Origin: Myxococcota bacterium
GTDB lineage: Bacteria; Myxococcota_A; SURF-8
DNA: 64,000 nucleotides
Assembly (NCBI GenBank): GCA_963674735.2
Contig: CAXXQS010000001.1
Location: 1,056,001-1,120,000, forward strand
Direction: 5' to 3'
Shown here: piece after piece, positions 2,779 to 37,325 of the stretch
Position numbering within the stretch: the first letter of the stretch is position 1
Layout: the number at the start of each line of letters is the position of its first letter
Notes under the pieces: model-generated
The model's input: the letters and a program-made list of their open reading frames with translations, nothing else
Database searches by the model: none
What the model was told of the DNA's origin: nothing
Made by a program: the position numbers and the translations under genes

Positions 2779-2782
2779 GGGA

Positions 2783-4060: not shown

Positions 4061-4097
4061 CCTGGACGAATCGATTCACCGTTAATGCGTTTGGTAC

Positions 4098-10357: not shown

Positions 10358-10358
10358 A

Positions 10359-12019: not shown

Positions 12020-12092
12020 TTGTTCCTCCCGACTTTCCCCCTCATATCCGCTTATCGTCAATCGCGATCTTTATCAATCGATGGAGATAAGC

Positions 12093-13154: not shown

Positions 13155-13164
13155 GGAGTCCTCC

Positions 13165-13650
13165 TCACGATTGTGCGTGTTTCAATAGCATATTTATAGC
13201 TGAATAAGCCGCTTTATTTCTGATGGATGAACGATCGCCGTCAAAGTGATAGTGTGCCTGATGAGTTCCGGATGGTCCGGCAAGGGCAATAAAGACCGTC
13301 CCCACCGGTTTGGATTCGGAACCGCCATCGGGTCCGGCTATGCCGGTAATGGCCAGCGCCCAGGTTGCCCCACTTGCGCTACGCTCGCCTTCCGCCATTG
13401 CTCGTGCGCAGGCTTCGCTGACCGCGCCGTGTTCGTCGAGGAGTGTTTCGGGTACGCCAAGTCGCCGGACTTTCGAACTATTGGCGTAAGTGACGATTCC
13501 TTCGATGAGTATGGCCGAGGCTCCGGGAATGTCGGTGATTTGTTTGGCGAGCAGTCCTCCCGTGCAAGATTCGGCCAACGAGAGGGTTTCGCCTCGTTTT
13601 GTTAAGGAATTAACCAGTAATTGTAATGAGTTAGCAGCCTGTTCAGTCAT
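13165..13650 (-). CDS. cinA: CinA C-terminal domain protein / nicotinamide-nucleotide amidohydrolase PncC
   Basis: AESCTGG, GAVSE and [16 protein letters not shown]; no N-terminal MoCF domain; upstream of recA. Start could be 13650 or 13662. Confidence 0.88.
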
Positions 13651-13871
13651 GCTCTTTGCCAAATTGCAGTCGAACGTTTCGTGATATTTTCGCAGAAATT
13701 CAGTACGTAGGGCAACGCGAAAATACCGGCAAATCGTCTATAGAAACGCCTGATAGAACCCTCACATTGAAACCATGTCCCCTGCGGCTTGTCAAGCTAT
13801 TAAATATCGTTTCAAAGAGAGGTGTGACGTATTCTGGCACACGCTGCTCAGGATTTCCAAGGCTGAAAAAA

Positions 13872-14813
13872 CTAGCGATTTCGAGATTTCTTTGGTTTTC
13901 TCGATGGTTTGGATGAGCGTGATCGATTGTGGGAGGGTGTCGCATTGGGATCCGGCCAAAGAAGCGGGTGGCGGGGTAGCCAATAGAAAACCATGAAAGC
14001 AGCTCCCGCAACGAGAAAGATCCCGATGAATTGGGATGTACTCAATAACCCAACCGTTCCCCGGCCACCGTCGTCGCGAACAAACTCGATCAGAAAGCGG
14101 AAGAAGGAATAGAGCCCGACAAAAGCCCAGAAGGCTAAGCCATCGCGCCATAGATGTCGAGTCTTTGTTGTCGGCTGTCCTGTGAACACACGATGGAGGC
14201 GAATCTGGGTTAGAAGCCACCATGTGAAGCCGGCCAGAACGAAACCGGCAGCCGATTCGAATAGTTGAGTGGGTAAGACAGGAGTCGAGAAGCCGTCCGG
14301 CAATAAAGCCCAGTGGCGGTGACTGTGCTGCTGGGCAACAAGACTTGGGGGCGGAAAACTCAACCCCAAAAAACTGTCGGTGCGAACGCCGTAACAACAA
14401 CCGCGAAGGAAGCAACCCAAGCGCGTGAGTCCCAATCCGAGTGCGAGTGCGGGGGTGGCGGCATCGAGGTGGGGACGTATCGGCAATTTGCGGTAGATGA
14501 ATATCGCCAACCCGGTTCCAACTCCAAAAATGAAGCCGCCATAAGCCACCATGCCGCCTTCGCGAACATTTACGATTCGAGCGAAGGTCCAGTCGAGGTG
14601 AGGGTTTGAAATGACGTGGAAAAGTCGTGCTCCGACAAGAGAAAGAAAGGCCGCTAGGATGATCGGTAAAACATAATTTTCCGGGTTGAGCCCGTGCCGT
14701 TTGGCCGTGAATGGAATGAAATACCACCCGACGATAAAGGCCAAGCCCAACATGACACCATAGCCGTATACCGGCAAATCAATCCAGGGAATGGTGAACA
14801 GAACGGGTTTCAT
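13872..14813 (-). CDS. lgt: Prolipoprotein diacylglyceryl transferase
   Basis: YGVML, GARLFH, GGMVAYGG, RLGCFLRGCCYG, PTQLFE and RFLIEFVR motifs. Confidence 0.93.
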   Translation of the reverse strand: MKPVLFTIPWIDLPVYGYGVMLGLAFIVGWYFIPFTAKRHGLNPENYVLPIILAAFLSLVGARLFHVISNPHLDWTFARIVNVREGGMVAYGGFIFGVGTGLAIFIYRKLPIRPHLDAATPALALGLGLTRLGCFLRGCCYGVRTDSFLGLSFPPPSLVAQQHSHRHWALLPDGFSTPVLPTQLFESAAGFVLAGFTWWLLTQIRLHRVFTGQPTTKTRHLWRDGLAFWAFVGLYSFFRFLIEFVRDDGGRGTVGLLSTSQFIGIFLVAGAAFMVFYWLPRHPLLWPDPNATPSHNRSRSSKPSRKPKKSRNR

Positions 14814-19065: not shown

Positions 19066-22000
19066 TTAGAGCCCGTTGCTTGCATTGATCACCACCGCAT
19101 CGCAAATGGGATCGGTCGCTGAAGGATCGTAGTAAACCCGTACATAGTAGGTGGCCGATTCATCCGTGCAGAAACGGTAAGGCCAGTTCGATTCATAGCT
19201 TGGGGCGAAAGTCGGCATCCATTCTTCGGGACGACATGGGCATTCGCCCGAAGTTCCCGGCCCCACAGTCGGGTCGCTGAAGTTGTAATAATCGTTGAAT
19301 TCAACCGTGTCGCTGCAGGCCAGCTGACTTCCCTGGCATCCACCTCGGTAAATATCGAAGCGGAACAGATTTCCCGGGTTATCGGATAACCAGACGTGAA
19401 GCGAGAAATTGTCGCAGGAAACATCCAGGGTATCGTTGGCGTAGAACATCAGCCAGGCTTCGTCGGCGGTGTTCAATAACTGAATCGATTCCGAAAGCAC
19501 CATACCTGGCAGTTCGTCGGAAAGATTGGAGCCTCCGGGCAACAGATCGGCTTCATTGCATGTTGGTGAATCGGGAAGCGCGGTTGCTTCGCATTCGCAA
19601 CCATCGGATGAATCCTCGTTCAAATCGAAATAGCCATCCAGGCAAGCTCCAACCTGACATTCGCCGTCGACGCAGGTTCCCTGTGCGTTGCTGTATTCGC
19701 AGGATTGGTTGCAAGCTCCGCAGTGAACGCTCCAATTGTAATTTCCTTGGGCATCCTTGAAATCCTCGTCTGTCTGACCATCGCAATCGTCATCGAGGTA
19801 ATTGCACACCTCATCCGTTCCCTGATAGGCGGTACCGCTGAAGTCGGTGCTGCAAATCGTGGCCAATCTGGCTGGATCGTTTGGATCACATTCGGTACGG
19901 CCCGGACCGCATAAGCCTTCCCCGATGCAGCCGACACCTAGGTCGAAACCTTCGTCGGTTATCCCATCGCAGTTGTTATCGAGGCCATCGCACACTTCGT
20001 CTTCGGCATTTTGCCACGCGGTGCATTCGATTCCCTGATAATCTTCACGGCAGACCCATTCACCGGTTCCGCACAAGCCAGGACTGCAAGGCTGGTTCTT
20101 TTCGGGCCACAACTCATCGGTCTGGCCGTCGCAGTCGTTATCCTTTTCGTCGCACAATTCCTGCTTGCCGCCAACTTCAGGATCGTCGTAATCCGATCCG
20201 CCCGGATTGGTCGAGCAAATGGCGGAGTATAAACCGAAGCACTCCCATTGCCCGATTCCGCATTCACCATCGCCGACGCAGAACTCTGTAAGCGAGTACC
20301 CTTCGTCGGTTTGATAGTCGCAATCGTTATCGAGACCATCGCAGCGTTCGGGGCGTCCTGCGTAGGCCGAACCGCCATAGAGCGTCGAACAGCGCGTGGT
20401 GCTGAGAGTGGCACACTCAAGAACGCCATTCGGGCATTCTCCCACGCCATTGCAACTAGATCCAATGCTGAAGTCTTCGTCCGTTTGGCCGTTGCAATTG
20501 TCGTCTTTGTTGTTACAAGTCTCGGTGACCGGGTTATATTGGCTCCCGGTGCCGCGGTCATCTTCGTAGGCAATAGTCGAGCAGCGGGTGCGTTCTTCCG
20601 TGTCGTCGCATTCCCAAACGCCGGTTCCGCATTCTCCCACACCTTGGCAGAAGGTGTTGAGCAGGCCTCCACAATTCAGTCCGTTGCAGTATGGCCATTC
20701 TTCATTGGGGTCACTCGGATCGAGACTGCGGTAATCTTCGTCGATCAGACCATCACAGTCGTTGTCCACTCCGTCGCATTTTTCCGGGCTACCGGTATAG
20801 GCCGAACCGCCAAACTCAGTGGAACAGATAACATCGTAGAGACTCCCGCATTCATAAACTCCGGCGTTGCATCCCTGCGAGGGTTGGCACGCGGATCCGA
20901 CACCGAATGTTTCGTCGGTGAGCCCGTTGCAGTCGTTATCCACTCCATCGCACAACTCGGGAACGGCTTGTGAGTTGCTGCCGCCCGGCATCGACGAGCA
21001 GATCGTGTTGTGTGCTCCGAAGCATTCGATAACGCCTTGTCCGCAGCCACCGATGCCCGTACAAACGGCACCGACGTTGAAGTTTTCATCGAAGGAACCA
21101 TCGCAATCGTTGTCTTTTGCGTCGCAGATTTCGGGACTGGTATCGGGGCTCGACCCGTTTGCATCGGATGAACAGCGTGTTGTGATGGGGGTGTCGCATT
21201 CGATGAACCCGGCCCCACATTCTCCCAAACCATCGCAAGACTGTCCGATGTTGTAAATTTCATCGGTTCGGCCGTCGCAGTTGTTGTCGAGATCGTCGCA
21301 AAGTTCGGGTTCTGCTTCCGATTGAGAACCATTGGGACTTGTAGAGCAGATCGAGGTGAAAACATTCAGGCATTCCAGGACTCCGGGACCACATTCACCC
21401 TGAGGCTGGCAAGATTGACCGATGTTGTAGTTTTCATCGGTCTGGCCGTCGCAATCGTTATCGATGCCATCGCAAAGTTCCATCGTAGACATATTGGCCG
21501 ATCCACCAGGCATGGTGGAACAACGAGTGCTTCCCTGGTCGTCGCATTCAAGCACGCCGCTTTCACACTGACCGACCCCGGGACAAGCCGTGCCGAGTGG
21601 GAAGTCTTCGTCGGTTTGTCCGTCGCAGTCATTATCCATACCGTCGCAAATTTCGCTACCGGAAGGATTGTATTGAGATCCTCCGAAACTGGTGGAACAA
21701 ATAAGGCTACCGGCATCGGCGCATTCGTAAATGCCGTAGTGGTCGCTGCAGCCTCCCGTGCCGACGCAGGGATTGCCGAGATCCGGCCAATCTTCATCGG
21801 TTTGCCCATCGCAATCGTTGTCCAAACTATCGCAGATTTCGGGCGATTGGGCCGTTTGAGAACCGTCGGGGTCGCTGGAACAGATGGCGAGATTTTGATT
21901 GCTCGGATGGCATTCAATGACTCCGGTTCCACACTCACCCACACCGTTACATTCAAGTCCTACGCCGAAATCTTCGTCGGATTGTCCATCGCAATCATTG

Positions 22001-25000
22001 TCGAGTCCGTCGCACAATTCGGTGGATCCGCCGTAAAAGCCGCCATTGATGTCTGTCGAACACACCGCCTGATTTTCATCGAGACATTCAAGAGCGCCCA
22101 AACCGCATTCGCCCACTCCTTCGCAGGGTTGACCGACCCCGAAGTCTTCATCGGTGGCCCCGTCACAGTCGTCGTCGATATGGTTGCATTTTTCGGGAGA
22201 GCCGGAATACTGCGAACCGCTTGGATCCGTCGAACAGCGAACATCGTGTTCACCGTCGCATTCCAAAATACCATAGCCGCATTTTCCGGTTCCAAGGCAA
22301 GAAATCGGCTGCCATGTTTGAGAGTTGAGTAGGAACGTTTCGTCGATTTTGCCGTCACAATCGTTGTCTCGACCGTCGCAGATTTCATTCACACCTTCGT
22401 ACTCACTGCCTGCAATGTCGGTCGAACAGCGGAAAGCGGTTTCGTTTTTGCACTCGTAGACGCCGATTCCGCATTCCCCGATGCCTTCACAACTCTGACC
22501 GACAAGATAGTCTTCGTCGGTTTGGCCGTCGCAATCGTTATCGAGATGGTCGCAGAGCTCGAAGGATCCCGCGTAGTCGCTGCCTTCGATATCCGTGGAA
22601 CAACGGGTTTGGTTGGTTCCGGGGACGCATTCGATATTCCCGGCGCCGCACAATCCGATACCCTCGCAGATCGTATCGAGATTGTATCCCTCATCGGTTT
22701 CACCGTCGCAGTTGTTGTCCAAGCCGTCGCACAATTCAGTGGCCCCTTGGTGCTGGCTTCCTCCAAAGTCGGTGGAACAGCGGCTGGAACCGGATTCGTC
22801 GCATTCGTAAACGCCTTGTCCGCAGGCGCTGCTGGTGTTGCAGACTTGGCCGATATTGAAGCCTTCATCGGTTTCGGTGTCGCAGTCGTTGTCTAATCCA
22901 TCGCAAATTTCCAACTGCGATCCGTCACCCGACCCCTCGGGACCGCTGGAGCAGCGGGAGGTGCCGTCAGGCGCGCATTCGATGATGCCGGACCCGCATT
23001 CTCCGGGAGACGAGCAGGCTTCTCCTACTTGCATGCCTTCATCGGTTTGCCCGTTGCAATTGTCATCGAGATTATTGCACAACTCCTCATGGGGAATATA
23101 TTGAGATCCGCCGGGATTGGTGGAGCAAAGACTGTTGACGGTATTGATGCATTCGTAAACCCCGGCTCCGCACTCGCCGATTCCGTCGCAAGACTGGCCG
23201 ACCAGGAAGTCTTCGTCGGTTTGACCGTCGCAATCATTATCAATGCCATCACAGAGTTCGGATTCGGGCGTGTATTGGCTTCCTCCCAAGGAGGTCGAAC
23301 AAATCCGCGTATCGGCATTCAGACATTCCCAGACACCCGATCCGCATTGACCTTGACCTTGGCAGCTTTCACCAATCTCGAAATCTTCATCGATCAAGGT
23401 GTCGCAGTCGTTGTCATTACCGTCGCACAATTCGATCTGGCTGTTGTCGTGCGTTCCTCCGGGGTTGGATGAACATTGAATACCGCTTTGCGCGGATGTG
23501 CATTCTGTGATGCCGGCGCCGCAGGATCCAATACCGGTGCAAGGATCGCCGAGGTCGAATGTTTCATCCGTCAGTCCGTCGCAATCGTTGTCCTTGCCGT
23601 CGCAAAGCTCAGACATTCCCAAGTAGGCGCTACCACCGGGAGCCGTAGAGCAGATGGCGAGGGCTGGGGTGTCGCATTCGACGATACCCATTCCGCATTC
23701 GCCGGGACCATCGCAAGCCTCCCCAAGCGGGATCGACGTCGTACCTTCGTCGAGGAAGAAATCTTCGTCGGTCAGGTAGTCGCAGTCGTCATCCTGTCCA
23801 TTGCAGCTTTCGGGAGAACCGGTCCAATTGCTGCCGCCGAATTGGGTCGAACACCGGACGGAGCTGGGAGTGTCGCATTCCAGAACGCCGCCGCCGCAGG
23901 GGCCGGGGGCCGTACACGGTTCACCGATCGGGAAGGATTCATCGGTTTCGCCGTCACAGTCGTTGTCTTTTTGGTCACAACGTTCCGTGATACCATCGAA
24001 AGCCGACCCGCCGGGGTTGGTCGAACAGATCGAGCGGGTGGGGTCGTTCGCGTCGCATTCGATGATGCCCAAACGGCATTCGCCGATGCCGTCGCAGGTG
24101 TCTCCCAGTTGGAACCCTTCATCGGTCCGGCCATCACAGTTATTATCGAGATTGTCGCATAATTCGGTGCTTCCGCCATAGTGACTGCCGCCCAAATCGA
24201 CGTCGCAGCGGATAGATGTGTCATTGGCACATTCGGTCACACCTTGGCCGCATTCGCCTTCACCCTCGCAAACCTGGCCGATCGCGAAATCCTCATCCGT
24301 TTGCGAGTCGCAATCGTCGTCGACGCCGTTGCAAAACTCCGTTCGTCCCCCGAATTCGGAGCCGCCACTGTCCGTACTGCAAACGATTCCGTCTTCATCG
24401 AGGTTGCATTCGTAGACACCGATACCGCAAGCGCCGACACCGTCGCAGGCTTGGCTTAACGTGGGCCAGTCTTCATCCGTTTGTGTATCGCAATCATCGT
24501 CGAGCCCGTTGCAGCGTTCGCCGGTCGGGTTGAACTGCGATCCGCCGGGGTCGGTGGAGCAGATGGGGGTTGTAGCATCTAGACATTCCATCAGTCCCTG
24601 ACCACAGCCTCCGCTGCCCGTACAAAGAATGCGTTCACCATAAACATCGAAAATGCCGAAACCTTCGTCGATCAATCCGTCGCAGTCGTCGTCACTCAGG
24701 TTACAGCTCTCGCTAACTCCCTCGTACTGAGACCCTCCCCATTCAGACGAACACCGCACGCCTCCGATCCCGTTGCACTCATTCACACCTTGCCCGCATT
24801 CTCCCAAACCGTCACAGCTTTGGCCGAGGTCGAAGTCCTCATCGGTCAGACCATCGCAGTCGTCATCCTGGCTGTTGCAGGATTCCGGAAGGTCTTCGCT
24901 TTGGCTGCCGTCGATGTCGGTGCTGCAAATCGTGGTCAACGCGTTCTGAGGGTCGCACTCCTTCACTCCGGGACCGCATTCGCCGACTCCGTTGCAGCTT

Positions 25001-28000
25001 GTTCCGAGTTGGTATCCTTCGTCGGTAACGCCATCGCAATCGTTGTCGAGACCATCGCAGAGCTCGTCGACACCTGCATACTCGCTTCCGCCGATATCGA
25101 CCGAGCAACGTCTGGCGGTGAGAGTGGCGCATTCATATACGCCTGAGTCGCATTCCCCCTGACCGGTGCAAGAGTTTCCGATGTCGAAATCTTCATCGGT
25201 TTCAGAATCGCAATCATCGTCGAGCCCATTGCAGACTTCCTGATTGGTTCCATATTGAGAACCGCCCGGGTCTTTGGAACAGCGTGTTTGTGATGGATCA
25301 TCGGTATTGCACTCGACAAACCCGATGCCGCATGCTCCCCCGGCATCGCAGGTGTCGCCGAGATTCGGGAAATCTTCATCCGTTTCGCCGTCGCAATCGT
25401 TGTCGAGTTGGTCGCAAAGTTCGGCTTGTCCACCGAAGTCAGGATTCGCGATGCAATTCTCGGGATCTTGTGCCGGATCGCAGCTTACGCAATCTCCGGG
25501 GTTGTAATAGGGATCACAGGTCGATAAGACGTATGGCAGGTCGACCGAGCAGACGCGTTCATCCGGTCCGTTGCAGAGCCACGAACCGAATGCGAGCAAA
25601 CAGACCCCGGTGCCGTTGCAGCCGTATCCGATCTGGTAGTCTTCATCGACTTGAGTATCGCAGTCGTCGTCAAGGCCGTTGCAGAGTTCCACCTGCTCAT
25701 CGTAAGCGGAACCTCCGGGATTCGTGGAGCAAATGTAAGATGAGTCGTCTTCGGGGTTGCACTCATAGACACCGGTCGGGCAGGCTCCGATTCCCAAACA
25801 AGTCGAGCCGACCGGGAATGTTTCATCCGTGTAACCGTCGCAATCGTCATCGAGCAGATTGCAGCGCTCGGTAATGGACTGATCTTCAGATTGGAACGGT
25901 TCGGTAGAGCAGGCGCGCGTCGATTCGGTTTTGCATTCCCAAGTGCCGATTCCGCACTGGCCCACCCCGTCGCAAAGCTCGCCGATACCGAAATCTTCAT
26001 CGATGCGACCATCGCAGTCGTTGTCCAGGCTATCGCAAGCTTCAGGCTCCCCGGCATATTCGGAACCACCGGATGATGTGGAGCAGACGGCTTCCTGATT
26101 GCCTCCGCATTCCCACTCTCCGGGGTCGTCGGCGCATTCTCCGATTCCGCTACAGCTTTCTCCAAGGTCGAAATCTTCATCGGTTTCGGTGTCGCAGTCG
26201 TCGTCGATGCCGTTGCAAAGCTCGGAAGAACCGTCGTACTCCGTTCCGCCCACGTCCGTGGAACAGCGAACGCTGCCGGAAACATTGCACTCGTAAACGC
26301 CTTCGCCGCAAGCACCGATACCGTTGCACAGTTGGCCGAGGGCGTAGTCCTCATCGGCGACGCCATCGCAATCGTCGTCGAGCCCGTTACAGCTTTCCGT
26401 GCCGCTATCGTCAGCGGACCCGCCGGGGTCGGTCGAGCAGCGGTTGCTGATCAACGATGCGCATTCGAATTGGCCAATTCCACATTCGCCCGTTCCGTCA
26501 CAGGTGTCGCCGATAAAGAAATCCTCATCGGTTTGTCCGTCGCAGTCGTTGTCGAGATCATCGCAGGATTCAGGGATATCTTCTCGATGAGAGCCCTCGG
26601 GATCGGTGGAGCAGATCGTGGAAAGCGGGTCGCCGGGGCGGCACTCAATCATGCCCTGGCCGCACTCGCCTTCGCCGTCACAGATTGCGCCGACAAAGAA
26701 ATCTTCATCGGTTTGCGCGTCACAATCGTCATCGATATCGTTACAGGTTTCATTTACGCCTTCATAGTCGTCATGACCCACAAGCGAGCTTGAGCAGGTA
26801 ACCTCCAAGGCGTTTAAGCAAACCCAAACACCCAGACCGCAGGGGCCTTCGCCGTCGCAAAGTCCTCCGATATTGTAATCCTCATCGGTCTGGCCGTCGC
26901 AATCATTATCGAGAGAATCACATTGTTCGTCGGACCCGGAATAGGCCGAACCGTTGAAGTTGGTGCTGCAGAGCCGGACGCTGCTGTCGTCGAGATCGCA
27001 TTCCCAAACTCCGTTGGGACATTCTCCGACGCCGCTGCAGCTTTGGCCGATATCGAAATCTTCGTCTTTTTGACCATCGCAGTCGTTGTCTTTGCCATCG
27101 CAAAGCTCGGGCTTGCCGCCGACCAGCGGGTTGTCGTATTGGGAACCCCCGATGTCCGTGGAGCAGCGCGCATGGGTTGTGTCGGCGCACTCGATCAGAC
27201 CCGATCCGCATTGGCCGATACCATCGCAGCTTTGGCCGACCAGGAAATCTTCATCCGTCAAACCATCGCAATCGTTATCTAAACCATCGCAAAGCTCGGT
27301 CACGTTCGTATACTCGCTGCCGCCGGGGTTGCTGGAACAGCGTGTGTTATCGGGACCTGCGCATTCAAGCACGCCATTTGCACATTCACCGATGCCGAGA
27401 CAGGCTGCCCCCACCCCGAAATCTTCATCGATCAAGCCGTCGCAATCATCGTCCTGTTCATTGCAGATTTCGGTTTCACTCCCATCGGACGATCCTCCGA
27501 TGTCGGTGGAACAGATCCAGCTTGAAGGGTCGGTGGGGTGGCATTCGCGGACGCCTTCACCGCAAATTCCGACTCCGTTGCAGGGCAGTCCCAGGCTGAA
27601 ATTCTCATCGGTCGACCCATCGCAGTCGTTGTCTTTATTGTCGCACAATTCCGAAACGGGTACATAGGCCGAACCGCCGGGATTGGTCGAACAGATGGCG
27701 CGGCTGAAACTGAAACATTCCAACTGGCCCTGCGGACATTCTCCGACGCCTTCGCAGGCGGACCCGATGTTGTAATCTTCATCCGTTTGGGAGTCGCAAT
27801 CGTTATCGATGTCGTCGCACCACTCCAGCTTGGCCTGATTCTCGCTGCCGCCGGGTTCGGTCGAACAAATAATGGAGTTCGCGTCTGCCGGATCGCATTC
27901 GAGTGCACCGGAACCGCAATAGCCTTCACCTTCACAAGAATCGCCCAACGGAAAATCCTCGTCGGTCTGGCTGTCACAGTCATCATCGAAGCCGTTGCAG

Positions 28001-31000
28001 AGTTCGGAAACGGATTGATCCTGACTGCCATCGACGTCGGTGCTGCATATCGCCCGGTTCGTGTCGGTCGGATGACATTCGGTGATGCCGGAACCGCAGA
28101 CTCCGATGCCGTTGCATGGTAAGCCGATGTTGAAGTCTTCATCCGAAAAACCGTCGCAGTCGTTATCAAGACCATCGCATACATCGGTGCTGGACTGATC
28201 GTCCCGGCCACCCATATCCGTGCTGCATATCGTGGCGGACGAATCGTCGGGAGCGCACTGAAGCTGCCCTTGGCCGCATTCACCGATACCATCGCAGCTT
28301 GTCCCAATACTGAAGCCTTCATCGGTTTGATCGTCGCAATCGTTATCGACCTCGTCGCAGATCTCCGTCGTCGATTGATCGGCTGATCCGCCGGGGAGAG
28401 TCGAACAACGTGTGGCATGCAGACCGTTACACTCCAGGATACCGTCTCCGCAGGCTCCGATTCCGCTGCAGGAAGCCCCGATATTGAAGCCTTCATCGGT
28501 AGCACCATCACAGTTGTCGTCTACTCCGTTGCAGACTTCTTCGGAGTTGTTGTACTGGGATCCGCCCGGTGCTTTGGAGCAAATGGTTTGGGTGGCATCG
28601 CTCTGCATACACTCGATGACACCGACATTGCAGTCGCCGACGCCATAGGTACACAGATCGCCGAGTGTGGGAAAGTCTTCATCGGTCTGGCCGTCGCAAT
28701 CGTCGTCGAAAGCATTGCAAAGCTCATCGGCGTGTTGATGCTGGCTACCGCCGATATCGGTCGAGCAGAGCGTGCGTGTTGGGTTGGATGCGTCGCATTC
28801 GGTAAGCCCTTCGCCGCAAACGCCAATGCCTTCGCAGATAACACCGACTGAGAATCCTTCATCGGTTTGGCCGTTGCAATCGTTGTCTTTGTCGTCGCAT
28901 ATCTCCGTTACATCCTGTGGATTCGAGCCTAGTGCGTCGGTGGAACAGACGGTCTGGTTAGCGTTTGTCGGATGGCACTCGACCAAACCTTCCCCGCATT
29001 CGCCTTCGCCGTTACAGGCCGAACCCAGGCTGAAATCTTCATCGGTTTGTCCGTCGCAGTCGTTGTCGTGGTTATCGCAGATCTCTGCCGAGCCGTCGTA
29101 GGAACTGCCGCCGGGACCGGTTGAGCATTGTACGATATTTTGCGCATCGCATTCCACAACACCCGCGCGACATTCGCCGGGAGGTTGGCAGGCCTCTCCC
29201 ACGCCTAAACCGCCATCGGTCAAGCCGTCGCAGTCGTCGTCCAGATTGTTGCAGAGTTCTTCCTTGGATTGATCGTCGGAGCCTCCCGGTTCGCTGCTGC
29301 AAATTGTTCGATTGTCGTTATCCGGGTCGCATTCGACAACTCCGATACCGCATTCTCCCGTACCGTCGCAGAGAACACCCAAAGAGAAGGCCTCGTCGAC
29401 TTGATTGTTGCAGTTGTTGTCTTTGCCGTCGCATACTTCTGGTGCGGATTCGTCGCTCGTTCCTCCGGGTTCCGTGGAACAGATTACGCCGATCGGGTTG
29501 TTGGGATCGCATTGTGTGACTCCGGCTCCACACTCACCCGCGCCATCGCAGGCTTCATCAAGATTGAATCCTTCATCGGTGGAGTCGTCGCAGTCGTTGT
29601 CTTTGCCGTCACAGATTTCGGCACTGCCGTCGTAAGCGCTACCACCGAAAGCGGTGGAGCAACGAGTGAGGTAGAGTCCATCGCATTCGATGACACCTTC
29701 ACCGCACTCGCCGGGAGGTTGGCAGGGGTTGCCGAGTTCGAGCTCTTCATCGGTTTGTCCGTCGCAATCGTCATCGAGATTGTTGCATAGTTCCCCGTTC
29801 GGAATGTGGGACGATCCTCCAATATCCGTTGAGCATAAGGTGAGATTTTCATCTTGCGGGTCGCATTCGATCACGCCTTCGCCGCATTCGCCCACACCAT
29901 CGCAGAGCGTGTCGACATCGAAGCCCTCATCCGTCTGTGTATCGCAGTCATCATCGAGGCCGTTGCAGTATTCGGTGCCGCCGGAGTATTCCGAGCCATC
30001 GATATCGGTGGAACACACGGATTCGTTCGCGTTCTTGCATTCGATAAGACCCAGGCCGCATTGACCGATGCCGTCGCAGCTTTGGCCGATATCGAAACCC
30101 TCGTCGGTTTGCCCATCGCAGTCGTTATCCTTGGCATCGCAGATTTCATCGACGCCTTCATAAACCGAGCCCATGCGATCAGTCGAACAAACGGTGAATT
30201 GCGGATTTTCAGGGTGGCACTCGATGTGTCCCTGCCCGCATTCGCCCAGACCTTCGCAGGCCGTCCCGAGATCGAACTGTTCATCGGTTTGGCCGTCGCA
30301 GTTATTGTCTTCGGTATCGCATACTTCCACTCCGCCGTTGGAATAGCAGCAGTAATACTCACAATCGGACGGATCATCGTCGATATCGTGCCAGCATTCT
30401 TCGCAGTTACGTCCCGAACCGGCCAGGTAGACCGTCGTGACGGGATTATCCAGATCGGATGAGTGAATGTTTACGCGGCAGGTGTAAGTGGTGACCGCCA
30501 ACGGCAAAAACGAAACGCCGAAGGTGAAGGATTCGTGTCCTTCGGTACCCGGAGTGATGTCGAAGGGGAGCGATGCTGAAGCGCCGGAGATGGAGAATTC
30601 GCTGCCGGTGCCATTATCGATCTCGATGTCCAGCCGTTCGATGGTCAGAGGGCCGAAACCGCTGTTCGTAATCACAAATTCGCGTGGCCCGAATGTTTGG
30701 TAAACTTGCAAACGTCCGAAGTCCCAAGGGGAATTCTCTGCCGTTGCCGGAGTGACGGCAATCAAGGGATTGATGGCGTAGCCGGACAGACCGATGCGGG
30801 TCTCGGGACGTTCGGGATCGTTGCTTTCGAGTAGCAGGGTGGCGGCATCGGCACCGGGCGGAAGCTTGGGTTGATAGGTCAGAGTGAAGAGCGTCTCGGC
30901 TTCCGGTTGAATCGGATCGGCCGGATTGGGGCTGATTCTGAAATCAAGTTGACCGCTGGGAAGCAAACTGATGGGATTGAGGAGAAGCTCCACTTCCCCT

Positions 31001-32790
31001 AGGTTCTGTGCCACAAAGGCAAGATCGACTTGCTCTCCGATGCGAACCTGCTCGAAATACAAGCTGTCGGCAAGCGGAGCACCTTCCGGATCGGTTAATG
31101 ACAGAGTTGGGGCGACGCCCTGGCCATCCATCAGGACATCCAGAGACGGAGTGTCGGGATCGTCGGCATTGATCGTCAGTTTTCCGCTATAGGCGGCACG
31201 TTCCAAAGGCGTAAAGGTGAGCGTGAGGTCAAGTGTGTCATCGACGGCGATCGTTGCCGGCAGTTGCTCGCCGGGGGCCAGTGCGACCGAAAAAGCCGCG
31301 TCCCCGCTGAGACTGAAACTGGTTATGTCGAGCGCCGTTTCGCCGACGTTCGCGATGGAAACCGTTTCTTCCGCCGTTGTATAAACCCCTGTTTGGCCGA
31401 AACTGACAGACTGACGGCTCAATTCCCATGAAGGCGTGATCCCTTCGCCGCTGAGCGCCACATCCAATGTGCTGGAGGGGTAAAAACGACCGGTCAAGCG
31501 CAGGGTTGTATTGTGAGTGCTCAGGCTCGTCGGGACGTAGGAAACATGGATTGTTTGGCTCTGGCTTGCGCCGAAAGGTTGGTCGAGAGCGGCGGATGCA
31601 TCGAAAGAGAAGGGGGTGCTTCCTTCAACGATTTCAGCACTTTCGATGATGGCTTCGCCTCCGCCCGAATTGGTGAGAACGAGCGCTAACTGTGTGAGCG
31701 AACCAAGCGGGCGGCGTCCGAAATCCATGCTTTCGGGGGTTAACTCGATACTGGGTGCGACTCCGCGACCACTAAGATCAACCGCGCCCGTTGCGCGCGT
31801 ATCGGATTCGGCATTGGTGGTGAACAGCATACGATCGGAAATATTTCCGACACTGTCGGGCTTGAAAACAACCGGAATGTCGATACTGTCACCCGGCGCC
31901 AGCATCTGTGTCTGGTCGGCCACGAAGGTATCGTCGTAATAAAACTGGGGCGAACTGCTCTCGAAGGTGAAGGGGCCAAGCTCCAAGACGGCATTCGAGT
32001 CGGGTTGAGCGACATGGGTCAAGGTGACGCTCAAGCTTTTTCCGGCCGGATTCAGAATATCCCAATCGCCGAAGTTCAGCGTTGCGGTTGAGATGGACAA
32101 AAGTGGGCTGCCACTGTAGGTGGAACGTGTTTGAACGCTGGCTTCCGGAATCAGGGGGTCGTTGCTCAGGATATACAGGGTGCAACTGTCTTCTCCGGCA
32201 TCGAGCATGCGATAGGAGAGGATGATGACGCGACTTTCGCCCGGACCGATGGCGGCGAATTCCTGGGGAGGGGTTACAACCGAGAATTCGTCTTGGCAGG
32301 AATGGTGGAAATTGACGGCGCGGATTTCGAGCGCGGCGTCACCGTGGTTTTGAATGAGCAGGTTTTCCGTGTCGGTCTGGTTGAGGATGACGGGGTCGAA
32401 GATAATCTGAGCGGGCAGGACGATGCTTGGGGCCGGACCTTCCGAGTCGGCGATAACATCGTTGTCAATATCATTTTCGGAATCGAGATCTTCGTCGCCA
32501 TCAATGTCAGTATCGGGCTTTTCGCTCAAATCACTTTCCGTATCGCTGTCGAGGTCATCGATATCGCCATCGGTCGGGATATCCCCATCGGTTGTTGGAT
32601 CCGAGTCCGTATCTCCATCGGTGGGCCAATGGTAGTCCCGATCCCCTTGTGTTTGATCGAGATCTCCGGGCGTGGGGGAGGTGTCGTCTTCGGAGGATCC
32701 TAAACATCCGCTGAAAAGGGTGCTGGATGTAAGGAGAAAAAACAGACTGATCCCGAGGAAGGCGGGATAGCGAAAAACGTTCATCTTCAT
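19066..32790 (-). CDS. Giant 4574-aa Cys-rich surface lipoprotein: acidic linker, six choice-of-anchor-D/ASH-like Ig domains, ~58 MopE-like metal-binding repeats and a C-terminal domain
   Basis: Uninterrupted ORF; GGAGG RBS; signal peptide with lipobox FSG-C; six 'F(G)...N.G..L.I' beta-sandwich units; repeated E-x-C-[DN]-x-x-D-[ND]-[DN]-C-D-G-x-x-D-E motif. Confidence 0.9.
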   Translation of the reverse strand: MKMNVFRYPAFLGISLFFLLTSSTLFSGCLGSSEDDTSPTPGDLDQTQGDRDYHWPTDGDTDSDPTTDGDIPTDGDIDDLDSDTESDLSEKPDTDIDGDEDLDSENDIDNDVIADSEGPAPSIVLPAQIIFDPVILNQTDTENLLIQNHGDAALEIRAVNFHHSCQDEFSVVTPPQEFAAIGPGESRVIILSYRMLDAGEDSCTLYILSNDPLIPEASVQTRSTYSGSPLLSISTATLNFGDWDILNPAGKSLSVTLTHVAQPDSNAVLELGPFTFESSSPQFYYDDTFVADQTQMLAPGDSIDIPVVFKPDSVGNISDRMLFTTNAESDTRATGAVDLSGRGVAPSIELTPESMDFGRRPLGSLTQLALVLTNSGGGEAIIESAEIVEGSTPFSFDASAALDQPFGASQSQTIHVSYVPTSLSTHNTTLRLTGRFYPSSTLDVALSGEGITPSWELSRQSVSFGQTGVYTTAEETVSIANVGETALDITSFSLSGDAAFSVALAPGEQLPATIAVDDTLDLTLTFTPLERAAYSGKLTINADDPDTPSLDVLMDGQGVAPTLSLTDPEGAPLADSLYFEQVRIGEQVDLAFVAQNLGEVELLLNPISLLPSGQLDFRISPNPADPIQPEAETLFTLTYQPKLPPGADAATLLLESNDPERPETRIGLSGYAINPLIAVTPATAENSPWDFGRLQVYQTFGPREFVITNSGFGPLTIERLDIEIDNGTGSEFSISGASASLPFDITPGTEGHESFTFGVSFLPLAVTTYTCRVNIHSSDLDNPVTTVYLAGSGRNCEECWHDIDDDPSDCEYYCCYSNGGVEVCDTEDNNCDGQTDEQFDLGTACEGLGECGQGHIECHPENPQFTVCSTDRMGSVYEGVDEICDAKDNDCDGQTDEGFDIGQSCDGIGQCGLGLIECKNANESVCSTDIDGSEYSGGTEYCNGLDDDCDTQTDEGFDVDTLCDGVGECGEGVIECDPQDENLTLCSTDIGGSSHIPNGELCNNLDDDCDGQTDEELELGNPCQPPGECGEGVIECDGLYLTRCSTAFGGSAYDGSAEICDGKDNDCDDSTDEGFNLDEACDGAGECGAGVTQCDPNNPIGVICSTEPGGTSDESAPEVCDGKDNNCNNQVDEAFSLGVLCDGTGECGIGVVECDPDNDNRTICSSEPGGSDDQSKEELCNNLDDDCDGLTDGGLGVGEACQPPGECRAGVVECDAQNIVQCSTGPGGSSYDGSAEICDNHDNDCDGQTDEDFSLGSACNGEGECGEGLVECHPTNANQTVCSTDALGSNPQDVTEICDDKDNDCNGQTDEGFSVGVICEGIGVCGEGLTECDASNPTRTLCSTDIGGSQHQHADELCNAFDDDCDGQTDEDFPTLGDLCTYGVGDCNVGVIECMQSDATQTICSKAPGGSQYNNSEEVCNGVDDNCDGATDEGFNIGASCSGIGACGDGILECNGLHATRCSTLPGGSADQSTTEICDEVDNDCDDQTDEGFSIGTSCDGIGECGQGQLQCAPDDSSATICSTDMGGRDDQSSTDVCDGLDNDCDGFSDEDFNIGLPCNGIGVCGSGITECHPTDTNRAICSTDVDGSQDQSVSELCNGFDDDCDSQTDEDFPLGDSCEGEGYCGSGALECDPADANSIICSTEPGGSENQAKLEWCDDIDNDCDSQTDEDYNIGSACEGVGECPQGQLECFSFSRAICSTNPGGSAYVPVSELCDNKDNDCDGSTDENFSLGLPCNGVGICGEGVRECHPTDPSSWICSTDIGGSSDGSETEICNEQDDDCDGLIDEDFGVGAACLGIGECANGVLECAGPDNTRCSSNPGGSEYTNVTELCDGLDNDCDGLTDEDFLVGQSCDGIGQCGSGLIECADTTHARCSTDIGGSQYDNPLVGGKPELCDGKDNDCDGQKDEDFDIGQSCSGVGECPNGVWECDLDDSSVRLCSTNFNGSAYSGSDEQCDSLDNDCDGQTDEDYNIGGLCDGEGPCGLGVWVCLNALEVTCSSSLVGHDDYEGVNETCNDIDDDCDAQTDEDFFVGAICDGEGECGQGMIECRPGDPLSTICSTDPEGSHREDIPESCDDLDNDCDGQTDEDFFIGDTCDGTGECGIGQFECASLISNRCSTDPGGSADDSGTESCNGLDDDCDGVADEDYALGQLCNGIGACGEGVYECNVSGSVRCSTDVGGTEYDGSSELCNGIDDDCDTETDEDFDLGESCSGIGECADDPGEWECGGNQEAVCSTSSGGSEYAGEPEACDSLDNDCDGRIDEDFGIGELCDGVGQCGIGTWECKTESTRACSTEPFQSEDQSITERCNLLDDDCDGYTDETFPVGSTCLGIGACPTGVYECNPEDDSSYICSTNPGGSAYDEQVELCNGLDDDCDTQVDEDYQIGYGCNGTGVCLLAFGSWLCNGPDERVCSVDLPYVLSTCDPYYNPGDCVSCDPAQDPENCIANPDFGGQAELCDQLDNDCDGETDEDFPNLGDTCDAGGACGIGFVECNTDDPSQTRCSKDPGGSQYGTNQEVCNGLDDDCDSETDEDFDIGNSCTGQGECDSGVYECATLTARRCSVDIGGSEYAGVDELCDGLDNDCDGVTDEGYQLGTSCNGVGECGPGVKECDPQNALTTICSTDIDGSQSEDLPESCNSQDDDCDGLTDEDFDLGQSCDGLGECGQGVNECNGIGGVRCSSEWGGSQYEGVSESCNLSDDDCDGLIDEGFGIFDVYGERILCTGSGGCGQGLMECLDATTPICSTDPGGSQFNPTGERCNGLDDDCDTQTDEDWPTLSQACDGVGACGIGVYECNLDEDGIVCSTDSGGSEFGGRTEFCNGVDDDCDSQTDEDFAIGQVCEGEGECGQGVTECANDTSIRCDVDLGGSHYGGSTELCDNLDNNCDGRTDEGFQLGDTCDGIGECRLGIIECDANDPTRSICSTNPGGSAFDGITERCDQKDNDCDGETDESFPIGEPCTAPGPCGGGVLECDTPSSVRCSTQFGGSNWTGSPESCNGQDDDCDYLTDEDFFLDEGTTSIPLGEACDGPGECGMGIVECDTPALAICSTAPGGSAYLGMSELCDGKDNDCDGLTDETFDLGDPCTGIGSCGAGITECTSAQSGIQCSSNPGGTHDNSQIELCDGNDNDCDTLIDEDFEIGESCQGQGQCGSGVWECLNADTRICSTSLGGSQYTPESELCDGIDNDCDGQTDEDFLVGQSCDGIGECGAGVYECINTVNSLCSTNPGGSQYIPHEELCNNLDDNCNGQTDEGMQVGEACSSPGECGSGIIECAPDGTSRCSSGPEGSGDGSQLEICDGLDNDCDTETDEGFNIGQVCNTSSACGQGVYECDESGSSRCSTDFGGSQHQGATELCDGLDNNCDGETDEGYNLDTICEGIGLCGAGNIECVPGTNQTRCSTDIEGSDYAGSFELCDHLDNDCDGQTDEDYLVGQSCEGIGECGIGVYECKNETAFRCSTDIAGSEYEGVNEICDGRDNDCDGKIDETFLLNSQTWQPISCLGTGKCGYGILECDGEHDVRCSTDPSGSQYSGSPEKCNHIDDDCDGATDEDFGVGQPCEGVGECGLGALECLDENQAVCSTDINGGFYGGSTELCDGLDNDCDGQSDEDFGVGLECNGVGECGTGVIECHPSNQNLAICSSDPDGSQTAQSPEICDSLDNDCDGQTDEDWPDLGNPCVGTGGCSDHYGIYECADAGSLICSTSFGGSQYNPSGSEICDGMDNDCDGQTDEDFPLGTACPGVGQCESGVLECDDQGSTRCSTMPGGSANMSTMELCDGIDNDCDGQTDENYNIGQSCQPQGECGPGVLECLNVFTSICSTSPNGSQSEAEPELCDDLDNNCDGRTDEIYNIGQSCDGLGECGAGFIECDTPITTRCSSDANGSSPDTSPEICDAKDNDCDGSFDENFNVGAVCTGIGGCGQGVIECFGAHNTICSSMPGGSNSQAVPELCDGVDNDCNGLTDETFGVGSACQPSQGCNAGVYECGSLYDVICSTEFGGSAYTGSPEKCDGVDNDCDGLIDEDYRSLDPSDPNEEWPYCNGLNCGGLLNTFCQGVGECGTGVWECDDTEERTRCSTIAYEDDRGTGSQYNPVTETCNNKDDNCNGQTDEDFSIGSSCNGVGECPNGVLECATLSTTRCSTLYGGSAYAGRPERCDGLDNDCDYQTDEGYSLTEFCVGDGECGIGQWECFGLYSAICSTNPGGSDYDDPEVGGKQELCDEKDNDCDGQTDELWPEKNQPCSPGLCGTGEWVCREDYQGIECTAWQNAEDEVCDGLDNNCDGITDEGFDLGVGCIGEGLCGPGRTECDPNDPARLATICSTDFSGTAYQGTDEVCNYLDDDCDGQTDEDFKDAQGNYNWSVHCGACNQSCEYSNAQGTCVDGECQVGACLDGYFDLNEDSSDGCECEATALPDSPTCNEADLLPGGSNLSDELPGMVLSESIQLLNTADEAWLMFYANDTLDVSCDNFSLHVWLSDNPGNLFRFDIYRGGCQGSQLACSDTVEFNDYYNFSDPTVGPGTSGECPCRPEEWMPTFAPSYESNWPYRFCTDESATYYVRVYYDPSATDPICDAVVINASNGL
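19760..30330 (-). repeat. Intragenic tandem array of ~58 diverged units of about 58-62 aa with 6 Cys each
   Basis: Manual count gives 59 CxxxDxxCDGxxDE motifs. Unit consensus: DF.IG..C.G.GECG.G..EC.....CST.PGGS.Y....E.CDG.DNDCDGQTDE. Confidence 0.9.
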
Positions 32791-33111
32791 CGTAGCCTCC
32801 AGACAACACGGACAATCCGGGTGCGTTGATCTGTGGCGAATGCCTCCAATATCGTTCGCACACCCATCCGAGTAAAACCCGACCCCACAGAATTTGGGGT
32901 TTTAGGCATATCGTGTTTCCGTTTTATGCACCGTTTAGAAAACGTTAAATACAGTGTGATGATAAAGAGTTATACGATTAAAGTCAAGGTGCGAAACGGC
33001 CTGGATGCGCTCGATTCGCGCAATGCGCGAATTAATTTCAAAGAGTGAAAAACCGGCGAGTAGTCCGAATGAGAGGAGGGGGCGGCGATTGGAGCTAAGT
33101 GGGCATTTTTC

Positions 33112-33205: not shown

Positions 33206-34282
33206 ATGCAGAATAAACGGGTAAAACAATGGACTTGCCTGCTTGTGTGGGTTCTGGCGGCCATGATGCTATGTGCTTGTAGCGATGAGGGAGAAGACGA
33301 AGCTGCCGACGGCGATGCCGGGCCGATTGCCGGAAATGTGGTGTTGAGTGATGAAAATCGCAATTTTCAGGTTCCGCATGTGTTCGACCTCAACGGTCAA
33401 TCGACCATTCTGTTTCGTGACGTTAATGGAATTTTTGCCTATCGCATGAACGCAGGCGACCTGATTCCCATCGACACACTGGGCTCCACCGCTTTGGGCT
33501 ATGGTGTCAATCAGTACGTTGTCGATGACAACTACTTTGTTTGGAATACCCGTACCACCTCGTCCTATCGCTATCAATGGGCGGTGAGTACCACACGCGA
33601 TGCTCAGACCGGACCGCTGGTGCCCGGCATGTGCATCATCACCGACCAGCTGAACCAGAAAGCCTTCGTGGCGGTCAAAGAGAGTGGCGATATGTTCCAG
33701 ATCGCGCTCAGCAACTTCAGCGACACAAGTGAACTGGATCCCATTCGTCTACTCGATCCTGACCAAACCAGTACACCGGTACAGATTCAAGCCTTTAGCT
33801 GTGAAGGAGGTCGCGGCTTTGTGGGATCTGCCGATGGCCGCCTGTTCGAGGTTAATCTGCTTGACAGTACGCCCACGTTGACTCCGCTTTTTGAGGTGGA
33901 CGACAGTTACTTTGCGATGCTGCAGTTTTCCGATCCCTATCTGGTTTGGATAAATTCCAATAATGACATTTGGTTGTACAACACCGAAACGCAGGATGGT
34001 CCGCGTTTGGCTGTCGATGTGGATCCGGTCAATCGAACGACATCGCGTGTCGAAGATTTACGGATCTTTGGCTCGGTTGTCGTGTGGAGCGATGATTCGG
34101 AAGGTAATTACAACATTTGGGCAGCCGATCTGGAAACGATCACCGATCCGGCGATCTATCCGCAGATCACCAACGAGCCGAACGACCAGCGTTTCCCTTA
34201 TATCTACCAGCAGAAAGTCTACTGGCAGGACAACCGCAACGGGAATTGGGAAGTGTTTTCCGGGATCTTGTCCACCCTTTAA
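33206..34282 (+). CDS. Beta-propeller lipoprotein with TolB-like / Methanosarcina-type propeller repeats
   Basis: Lipobox LCA-C; AGGAGG RBS; repeats VVWSDDSEGNYNIW and VYWQDNRNGNWEVF. Confidence 0.75.
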   Translation: MQNKRVKQWTCLLVWVLAAMMLCACSDEGEDEAADGDAGPIAGNVVLSDENRNFQVPHVFDLNGQSTILFRDVNGIFAYRMNAGDLIPIDTLGSTALGYGVNQYVVDDNYFVWNTRTTSSYRYQWAVSTTRDAQTGPLVPGMCIITDQLNQKAFVAVKESGDMFQIALSNFSDTSELDPIRLLDPDQTSTPVQIQAFSCEGGRGFVGSADGRLFEVNLLDSTPTLTPLFEVDDSYFAMLQFSDPYLVWINSNNDIWLYNTETQDGPRLAVDVDPVNRTTSRVEDLRIFGSVVVWSDDSEGNYNIWAADLETITDPAIYPQITNEPNDQRFPYIYQQKVYWQDNRNGNWEVFSGILSTL

Positions 34283-37115: not shown

Positions 37116-37325
37116 CGATCTGTCGCCAATCACGAAGGCAAGCTGTTTAAATGATTTAATCTTTTCTGATAACCGTGCGAAGTTTAAAAGATGAGCGGAT
37201 AATCTGCAAGCCTTAATTCTCATAGATCATTGTAAAGCATTATAAAGCCGATGATTGTCAATAACTTGAAATAACTCTTGAAAACATGGCATAGTGCTGC
37301 CTGAAAAAGATGAATGGAGGTAATC

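Follow-up and report, generated by a model that had tools for sequence, protein, structure and literature searches.

A giant gene for a repeat-rich lipoprotein was analyzed in a 64,000-nt stretch of a Myxococcota bacterium genome (GenBank assembly GCA_963674735.2, contig CAXXQS010000001.1, positions 1,056,001 to 1,120,000 of the forward strand). This whole stretch is referred to as the window. The gene is a single open frame on the minus strand (19066..32790) that starts with ATG and encodes 4574 amino acids (aa), the length given in an earlier description made from the sequence alone (hereafter, the original prediction). It is a real lipoprotein gene, and its product consists of a membrane anchor, six immunoglobulin (Ig)-like domains, 58 acidic repeats of six Cys residues each, and a small end domain. 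Every countable feature of the protein listed in the original prediction was correct. We give an even chance to the reading that this is a giant envelope lipoprotein whose repeats would form a disulfide-bonded, Ca2+-binding rod with a tip like the pre-peptidase C-terminal (PPC) domain, acting as a surface spacer or adhesin.

The repeat array and its unit

The motif D[DN][DNS]C[DN] occurred 59 times in the protein. These motifs define 58 complete units, and the 59th runs into a Cys-rich module near the C-terminus. The spacing between motifs was 58 aa in 25 cases and 60 aa in 18, and the periodicity of the array is far beyond chance. Each unit joins a MopE-type half (C-x3-D-[ND]-[DN]-C-D-G-x-T-D-E) to a half with four Cys residues (C-x5-C-x6-C-x7-9-C-S-T), and the overall consensus is C-[DN]-x-x-D-[ND]-[DN]-C-D-G-x-T-D-E-[DG]-F-x-x-G-x-x-C-x-G-x-G-E-C-G-x-G-V-x-E-C-x(7-9)-C-S-T-x-x-G-G-S-x-Y-x(4)-E-x. 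Exactly six Cys residues were present in 56 of the 59 segments, eight in two and ten in one; the number was always even. With 354 Cys residues between aa 824 and 4328, the array agrees with the earlier estimate of about 58 six-Cys units and roughly 350 Cys.

Nine columns of the unit alignment were invariant (C1, D5, C8, D13, C22, C28, G31, C35, and C45). The acidic core was conserved among the 58 units as follows: D5 in 58, D7 in 49 (Asn in 9), D9 in 53 (Asn in 5), G10 in 42, D13 in 58, and E14 in 57. The Pfam family PF11617 (Cu-binding_MopE, putative metal-binding motif) matched the protein with 671.5 bits against a cut-off of 27, over 36 stretches. The protein thus belongs to this family, and the first half of the unit is a MopE-type motif, as had been proposed. 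A unit profile was built from 55 of the 58 units, with units 27, 54, and 57 omitted for their odd lengths. Local hmmsearch with this profile detected 58 domains in the array, and 56 of these spanned 50 or more of the 58 profile positions.

The protein is strongly acidic. Gly (13.3%), Asp (13.0%), Cys (8.3%), and Glu (8.1%) are abundant, and His (0.8%) and Trp (0.6%) are scarce. Asp and Glu number 964 against 117 Lys and Arg, giving a net charge of about −847; within the array the figures are 790 and 81. The 381 Cys residues are the lipobox Cys and 380 others. A salt-in halophile proteome was ruled out as the cause of this acidity, since RecA, CinA, and PfkB are near neutral.

Asp/Asn coupling between motif positions 2 and 6

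Positions 2 and 6 of the motif are each occupied by Asp or Asn. In the giant protein (P0001; motifs at 19738-30321, minus strand) the two residues were always different, and the same held almost without exception in the long-array relatives P0002, P0003, and P0004 that are described below (Table 1). Mutual information between the two positions was 0.94 bits, with a z-score of 47.7 against shuffles. Because the repeats share descent, Fisher p values for the motif counts overstate their independence. Every other column gave a z-score of 2.4 or less, so the coupling is a pairwise constraint and not the mark of two kinds of unit. Unit subtypes were considered as the source of the pattern and ruled out, as position 2 covaries with position 6 alone.

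Table 1 Full repeat units and residue pairs at motif positions 2/6. Full units cover at least 50 of the 58 profile positions in hmmsearch of 240 proteins gathered from the full-length and unit-profile searches.
Protein	Full units	D/N	N/D	D/D	N/N	Other
P0001 (giant gene), 59 motifs	56	37	22	0	0	0
P0002	48	39	14	0	0	1 (G/N)
P0003	46	33	20	0	0	0
P0004 (2550 aa)	36	31	5	1	0	0
236 other proteins, 6568 motifs	15 (next highest)	3334	2171	521	7	535

Without selection, so few Asn/Asn pairs among thousands of motifs would be difficult to account for. Most simply, the side chains at positions 2 and 6 would belong to a common site in which one carboxylate or more is required. No mention of an Asp/Asn swap in PF11617-type motifs was found in the literature searched.

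Divergence and order of the units

The units are old and diverged. Their pairwise protein identity averaged 48% (range 28-69%), and the DNA copies were about 60-82% identical to their reference copies. Tandem Repeats Finder reported no array in the gene, and the longest exact direct repeat within it was 30 nt.

Unit order was compared between P0001 and P0002. Best matches of single units were noisy because identity along the ortholog chain (about 59%) was close to that of the best paralog (about 59%), and a test of the collinear chain was the informative one. The chain scored 4.13, compared with 2.43 ± 0.14 (maximum 2.83) in 200 shuffles of unit order. Landmark units carrying insertions also paired up between P0001 and P0002 (27 with 21, 32 with 26, 54 with 48, and 57 with 51).

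Calcium and copper

The core D5-x-D7-x-D9-G10, with D13-E14 after it, is of the DxDxDG calcium-loop form, a general motif that Rigden and Galperin reportedly described in 2004. Calcium-binding EGF arrays of fibrillin and Notch are likewise built of tandem six-Cys modules with an acidic Ca2+ site and stiffen into rods. The likeness of the unit to these arrays is a functional analogy; the Cys spacing differs, and no EGF family (EGF, EGF_CA) appeared in the Pfam scan of P0001. One relative carries the JGI name 'Notch-like protein'.

A closer sequence parallel has been published for teneurins. In an alignment by Tucker et al., the teneurin C-rich region was set against the PF11617 consensus (PMC3278476). 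Meijer et al. later solved this domain, which is 38 residues long and holds three Ca2+ through eight acidic ligands and one Asn ligand; its six Cys residues form three disulfides, and two of its Ca2+ sites are like those of thrombospondin type 3 repeats (PMC9058538). The teneurin region, the thrombospondin repeats and our unit have in common an acidic D-N-D-x-D-G-x-x-D core flanked by Cys, whereas the teneurin domain is single and 38 aa long and the unit is a 58-aa tandem module. Pfam TSP_3 and TSP3_bac did not match P0001 at E ≤ 0.01; both occur in some other MopE giants.

The name of the Pfam family derives from MopE/CorA of methanotrophs. The copper site of these proteins is formed by two His residues and a Trp-derived kynurenine, apart from a separate structural Ca2+ site (PMC3423442; PMC3912023), and PF11617 has been noted to span just a small part of MopE/CorA and to be unspecific (PMC6189053). 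The unit shares with them the short acidic Cys motif only; the copper site and the MopE* fold are absent from it, and no PDB sequence matched. His and Trp are outside the three commonest residues at every well-occupied unit column, and the 3505 aa of the array contain 23 His and 19 Trp. Because these ligands are not conserved, copper binding of the MopE kind is not supported, and the MopE name is a historical label. This argues against the part of the original prediction that offered a metal sink, insofar as a MopE-type copper sink was meant.

Predicted fold of the unit

AlphaFold2 was run on units 39-41 (aa 3122-3295), as the original prediction had suggested for two or three units, using an alignment of 48 three-unit windows of the giant protein itself, from which windows with units 27, 54, or 57 were omitted. 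The model had a mean predicted local distance difference test score (pLDDT) of 67.7 and a predicted TM-score (pTM) of 0.33, and each unit was modelled as a short strand and a beta-hairpin. When the model was compared with the PDB by Foldseek, 84 matches had E ≤ 10, but not one had E ≤ 0.001. Chains of fibronectin type I modules headed the list (E 0.07-1.9), several from predicted-model entries; an Entamoeba Gal/GalNAc lectin (E 1.5) and Notch EGF 4-7 (E 5.5, chance level) were among the others. These proteins, too, consist of disulfide modules strung like beads, and they do not allow a fold to be assigned. The resemblance to eukaryotic matrix repeats noticed earlier is thus not significant.

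No PDB chain reached E ≤ 10 when all PDB sequences were searched by HMMER, whether the query was the 58-position unit profile or a 26-position profile of the motif half. A search of the ESM Atlas with three units, omitting PF11617 clusters, gave one row, a Dicty_CTDC cluster with a score of 0.87, which is not above the level of a lead.

Relatives and family

The full-length search was limited to proteins of 2515-8005 aa. At E ≤ 0.001, 524 of 6397 candidates matched, and 120 matches were listed. Names among the matches included 'MopE-related protein' and 'putative metal-binding motif-containing protein', and the bins were assigned to Bradymonadia, Myxococcales, Polyangiales, Sandaracinaceae, and Deltaproteobacteria, with a few to Bacteroidota. 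The unit profile was also searched against 1.84 billion cluster representatives, an approach put forward in the original prediction. Of these representatives, 7669 matched at E ≤ 0.001, including 1008 at E ≤ 1e-30. In the best 150 of the 7669, the number of matched stretches per protein ranged from 6 to 66 (66 in P0007, 55 in P0003, and 52 in P0030). The class is common and already named, and very long arrays are not rare. The view that such motifs usually occur in fewer copies holds for most unit-bearing proteins; it does not extend to the giants, which are common (524 proteins) and reach 66 unit matches or 85 motifs.

Two relatives are close to the giant protein. P0002 (4209 aa, 55% identity) and P0003 (4323 aa, 48% identity) carry the same lipobox, acidic linker, six-Ig stalk, array, and C-terminal region. 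The architecture, at a similar copy number, is therefore not unique to P0001, a point that the original prediction had set for checking, and both relatives are uncharacterised. P0004 contains the C-terminal domain and gave no stalk match.

PF11617 repeat proteins of Myxococcota and Bradymonadia have the same motif as the giant protein, also in long Cys-rich arrays and in the same taxa, but the motif is mostly paired with other second halves. Examples are the motif-rich giants P0008 (85 motifs) and P0014 (68 motifs), whose second halves are mostly different. The subfamily of the giant protein adds a lipobox, the six-Ig stalk, and a putatively PPC-like end to the PF11617 array. When the stalk and the C-terminal 174 aa were compared with the 240 proteins by BLASTP, ten proteins besides the query matched both and eight more matched the stalk alone. 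Eight of the ten (P0155, P0185, P0163, P0152, P0207, P0169, P0212, and P0230) are 1571-1855 aa long with 7-11 unit matches, and the repeat number within this family varies about six-fold. Lipoproteins of this family typically carry about 8 units, and the giant protein is the most expanded member found.

PF11617 arrays of other proteins end in a variety of domains. Among the 120 listed giants, RHS repeats occurred in 15, FGE-sulfatase in 18, OmpA in 3, and a Por secretion tail in 2, the family names having been verified on examples. Because of this variety, the sequences suggest that the PF11617 array may be a general-purpose extracellular stalk.

A genome scan with the C-terminal alignment found at least 43 loci. 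Neither the source genome nor that of P0002 is among those listed, an absence that carries no weight. Among those listed, 30 of 43 carry Myxococcota-lineage labels and 3 the label 'Deltaproteobacteria', in line with the statement that the MopE motif is typical of Myxococcota. The bins of three loci (L002, L004, and L022) are labelled Rickettsiales, Gammaproteobacteria, or Candidatus Falkowbacteria, which could reflect mis-binning or a wider range.

In the literature searched, we found no paper describing these MopE-related repeat proteins or their function, and none pairing the MopE metal-binding motif with Myxococcota. A 2026 preprint on cysteine-rich repeats and gene transfer deals, in its available part, with a different repeat, and Myxococcota are merely among its hits. 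A preprint on giant genes names Myxococcota, in the part available, only as rich in very large genes.

The C-terminal domain

Downstream of the array, the 59th motif and its Cys-rich module are followed by a domain of aa 4401-4574. The Cys-rich module is widespread, and most of the 43 loci listed match only query residues about 1-85. Full-length relatives of the terminal domain itself (30-33% identity) were found at the extreme C-terminus of MopE proteins of 625-1276 aa at four loci (L001, L002, L005, and L037), with weaker matches at L040 and L042. A Pfam search with the C-terminal 246 aa gave nothing at E ≤ 1 except one chance-level row, and PF04151 was not matched.

The AlphaFold2 model of the domain had a pLDDT of 73.4 and a pTM of 0.71, with a low-confidence insert at model residues 103-139, and was based on a 7-row alignment. 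The alignment stayed at 7 rows because no short protein with this domain matched (0 of 72 candidates of 95-305 aa at E ≤ 0.001). In the model the domain is a beta-sandwich. The distinct C-terminal domain of the original prediction is present and has no Pfam match. The best Foldseek match was 5sv5, a collagenase pre-peptidase C-terminal domain (E 6.5e-3, probability 0.96; TM-score 0.31 by query length and 0.44 by target length). The next were the collagen-binding domains of ColH and ColG (E 0.05-0.07), and no match reached E ≤ 0.001. PPC and collagen-binding domains (5sv5, 3jqw, 1nqj, and 5iku) are thus the nearest structures, from which the giant's domain differs by extra cysteines and the long low-confidence insert. 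An Atlas cluster with PPC in 39% of its members had a score of 0.90 to the domain. Based on the model, we tentatively regard the domain as PPC-like.

Anchor, linker and stalk

The coordinates of all segments are summarized in Table 2. The N-terminus carries a lipoprotein signal, MKMNVFRYPAFLGISLFFLLTSSTLFSG directly followed by Cys, and equivalent sites are present in P0002 (ISSC) and P0003 (LSGC). The lipobox was judged by the pattern rule (PROSITE PS51257). The lipobox with its Cys at residue 29 and the acidic linker had both been recognized in the original prediction; the linker is probably disordered.

The six ASH/choice-of-anchor-D-like domains described earlier were also recovered. NCBIfam NF012200 (choice_anch_D) matched the whole protein with 179.1 bits against a cut-off of 45, in 5 stretches. 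When the stalk was cut by eye into six pieces and each was searched singly, all six matched NF012200, five with E-values of 1.4e-14 to 2.9e-7 and the second weakly (E 0.0079), five of the six single-piece scores being under the whole-protein cut-off of 45 bits. The stalk was also matched by Pfam PF22544, PF22073, and PF15780 (ASH, HYDIN, and Cep192 Ig families).

Table 2 Segments of the giant gene and its product, with positions in the window.
Feature	Residues	Coordinates	Strand	Basis
Ribosome-binding site GGAGG		32796..32800	−	5 nt before ATG, read directly in sequence
Lipoprotein signal peptide, lipobox LFSG-C, Cys29	1-29	32704..32790	−	Sequence and ortholog sites
Acidic linker	30-120	32431..32703	−	35 Asp+Glu, 2 Lys+Arg, and 19 Ser+Thr in 91 aa
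Six Ig-like choice-of-anchor-D / ASH-HYDIN domains	121-795	30406..32430	−	NCBIfam and Pfam matches
Short Cys-rich cap, 5 Cys at 796-815	796-823	30322..30405	−	Similar in P0002 and P0003
Array of 58 complete units	824-4328	19807..30321	−	Motif count, unit alignment, PF11617
59th MopE motif fused to Cys-rich module (HCGAC...DGCEC)	4329-4400	19591..19806	−	
Predicted C-terminal beta-sandwich domain, tentatively PPC-like by fold	4401-4574	19069..19590	−	AlphaFold2 and Foldseek

Genomic context

The neighbours of the giant gene are housekeeping genes. On one side are alaS, recX, the gene of a PilT-like ATPase, recA, cinA, lgt, and genes for an FHA/TPR protein and a beta-eliminating lyase; on the other are genes for an unknown lipoprotein, an acyl-CoA dehydrogenase, and a histidine kinase, followed by comEC (40420-42915) and a VKOR-DsbA fusion. 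In the cluster cinA-recA-ATPase-recX-alaS (7640-13662, minus strand), the gene of a 402-aa PilT-like ATPase of the T2SSE family lies between recA and recX. The RecA of the window is 80% identical to the RecA on the contig that bears P0002. Its best matches reach 85% and 84% identity; another match at 80% is labelled 'Myxococcales bacterium', and those at about 70-75% are of the Desulfuromonadales type. The prolipoprotein diacylglyceryl transferase gene lgt (13872-14813, minus strand) is 4.3 kb from the 3' end of the giant gene, a closeness that is probably coincidental. The VKOR-DsbA fusion (45315-46529, minus strand; 404 aa, 12 Cys) is a disulfide-forming system 12.5 kb from the giant gene; it is relevant to an exported protein with 381 Cys residues, yet probably housekeeping.

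A divergent gene, separated from the giant gene by 415 bp, encodes a putative lipoprotein of 358 aa (33206-34282, plus strand) that matched no Pfam family at E ≤ 0.1. It is one of four lipobox proteins seen in the window, together with the giant protein, a 609-aa protein without a Pfam match (37314-39143, plus strand), and a GH5 glycosidase (51600-53225, plus strand). In all four, a stretch rich in Asp and Glu follows directly after the lipobox Cys. This stretch may be a sorting or tether feature of lipoproteins in the lineage. Bacteroidota lipoproteins have an acidic surface-export signal after the Cys, and the likeness here is only a lead.

As the original prediction had noted, the open reading frames scanned in the window include no dedicated exporter, whether of type I, type V, or another kind; ABC, MFP, and TolC genes are likewise missing from them. 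Export had been called unexplained on that ground. This applies only to the outer-membrane step, because the inner-membrane step is given by the lipoprotein signal peptide.

Discussion

The analysis directly shows the architecture and its conservation, the unit order collinear with P0002, and the coupled Asp/Asn pair. We propose the following arrangement for the giant protein, mainly from its sequence features. The signal peptide and lipobox would direct Sec export, with lipid modification of Cys29, because both are conserved in the orthologs. Beyond this membrane anchor would follow a flexible acidic tether, the six-Ig stalk, and the 58 small modules. Per module, three disulfides are probable, as is the binding of one or more Ca2+ by the D-x-D-x-D-G loop. 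All Cys residues except Cys29 would be in disulfides because of the even counts per unit, the fixed spacing, and the VKOR-DsbA gene; these features, with the acidic core including D13/E14 and the strict Asp/Asn swap, make the disulfide- and Ca2+-stiffened rod of the original prediction compatible with the sequence. Together, the modules could form a long, stiff, strongly anionic rod of roughly 145-230 nm at 2.5-4 nm per unit, a rise assumed from other small disulfide modules. As a spacer or adhesin, such a rod would keep the PPC-like beta-sandwich, its putative binding tip, at a great distance from the cell. The reach may depend on copy number, as suggested by relatives that combine this stalk and end with only about 7-11 units.

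Giant Ca2+-rigidified adhesins of the RTX/BIg type, such as LapA and the Marinomonas ice-binding adhesin, depend on type I secretion and are built of Cys-free Ig-like repeats with a C-terminal RTX signal. LapA-type adhesins and the giant protein have in common a cell anchor, a long extender that is Ca2+-dependent in the former and presumably so in the latter, and a distal domain for binding, which is putative in the giant protein. The giant protein differs in its N-terminal lipoprotein signal and disulfide-rich units, and no RTX family was present in the Pfam scan of P0001.

In a bolder form of this proposal, the 58-aa unit would be a Ca2+-binding fold with three disulfides that is new and has no detectable PDB relative. 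One Asp and one Asn at motif positions 2 and 6, able to trade places, would complete a metal or hydrogen-bond site, and Myxococcota-like bacteria would build the unit into lipid-anchored surface fibres of a length fixed by copy number. We consider this form somewhat unlikely.

Several observations weigh against the rod. The Asp/Asn coupling proves an interaction of two positions, not metal binding. The link to the Ca2+ sites of teneurin and thrombospondin rests on the published short-motif alignment, because no PDB match was found here. The three-unit model is of moderate confidence, and the PPC assignment is weak given the silence of Pfam, the Foldseek E-value and the 7 alignment rows. P0003 has 364 Cys residues, an odd number once the lipobox Cys is removed. 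Finally, the window contains no candidate exporter to carry a 4574-aa lipoprotein over the outer membrane.

This last point leads to the alternative that survives best, namely a matrix protein inside the envelope or shed from it, which is folded in the periplasm or released and has a structural or cation-buffering role. No outer-membrane translocation system is seen near the gene, and the net charge would suit cation buffering. However, 58 modules and six Ig domains far exceed the width of the periplasm at the length per unit assumed above. The order of anchor, stalk, repeats, and end is moreover that of known giant adhesins, and the acidic stretch after the Cys in the four lipobox proteins recalls the surface-export signal of Bacteroidota. 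We regard a matrix protein as unlikely.

Distinctly less probable is a metal sink or metallochaperone, in which the array, through its Cys and acidic residues, would serve as an extracytoplasmic trap for copper or other metals. The family name Cu-binding_MopE, the 354 Cys residues, and the excess of 790 acidic over 81 basic residues speak for such a role. Against it, the His and Trp ligands of MopE/CorA are not conserved in the unit, no PDB chain matches the unit at E ≤ 10 although the solved MopE* and CorA chains are presumably among those searched, and the even Cys counts and fixed spacing indicate disulfides rather than thiolate ligands.

It is very improbable that the protein is the delivery stalk of a polymorphic toxin or enzyme system: RHS- and FGE-sulfatase-tipped MopE giants offer a precedent, but P0001, P0002, and P0003 have no RHS, toxin, or enzyme domain, the C-terminal domain resembles, in its model, a binding-type beta-sandwich, and no immunity-like small open reading frame was seen beside the gene, though none was examined for. 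Misassembly is a classic problem of long tandem arrays, but an error in unit number or frame through repeat collapse or mis-joining is hardly credible here, because the units are diverged at the protein and DNA levels, exact repeats are short, and unit order is conserved with the ortholog; the frame is also open across 13.7 kb.

Few building blocks of giant proteins are as abundant in Myxococcota-like bacteria as arrays of the PF11617 type, yet the searches turned up neither a solved structure detectably similar to this class nor a paper on its function. The class is already named and functionally unstudied, and the Asp/Asn coupling is the new detail of this analysis. The giant gene alone would not surprise a specialist. 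As a clean, regular, and complete example, with short-array relatives and a sharp, testable residue coupling, it is a good entry point to the question of rods and Ca2+. If the bolder form of the rod proposal is true, copy number, from about 8 units in ordinary members to 46-56 in the lineage of the giant protein, would set the length of the fibre, and these proteins would be a bacterial counterpart of fibrillin- and Notch-type rods, reaching prey or substrate.

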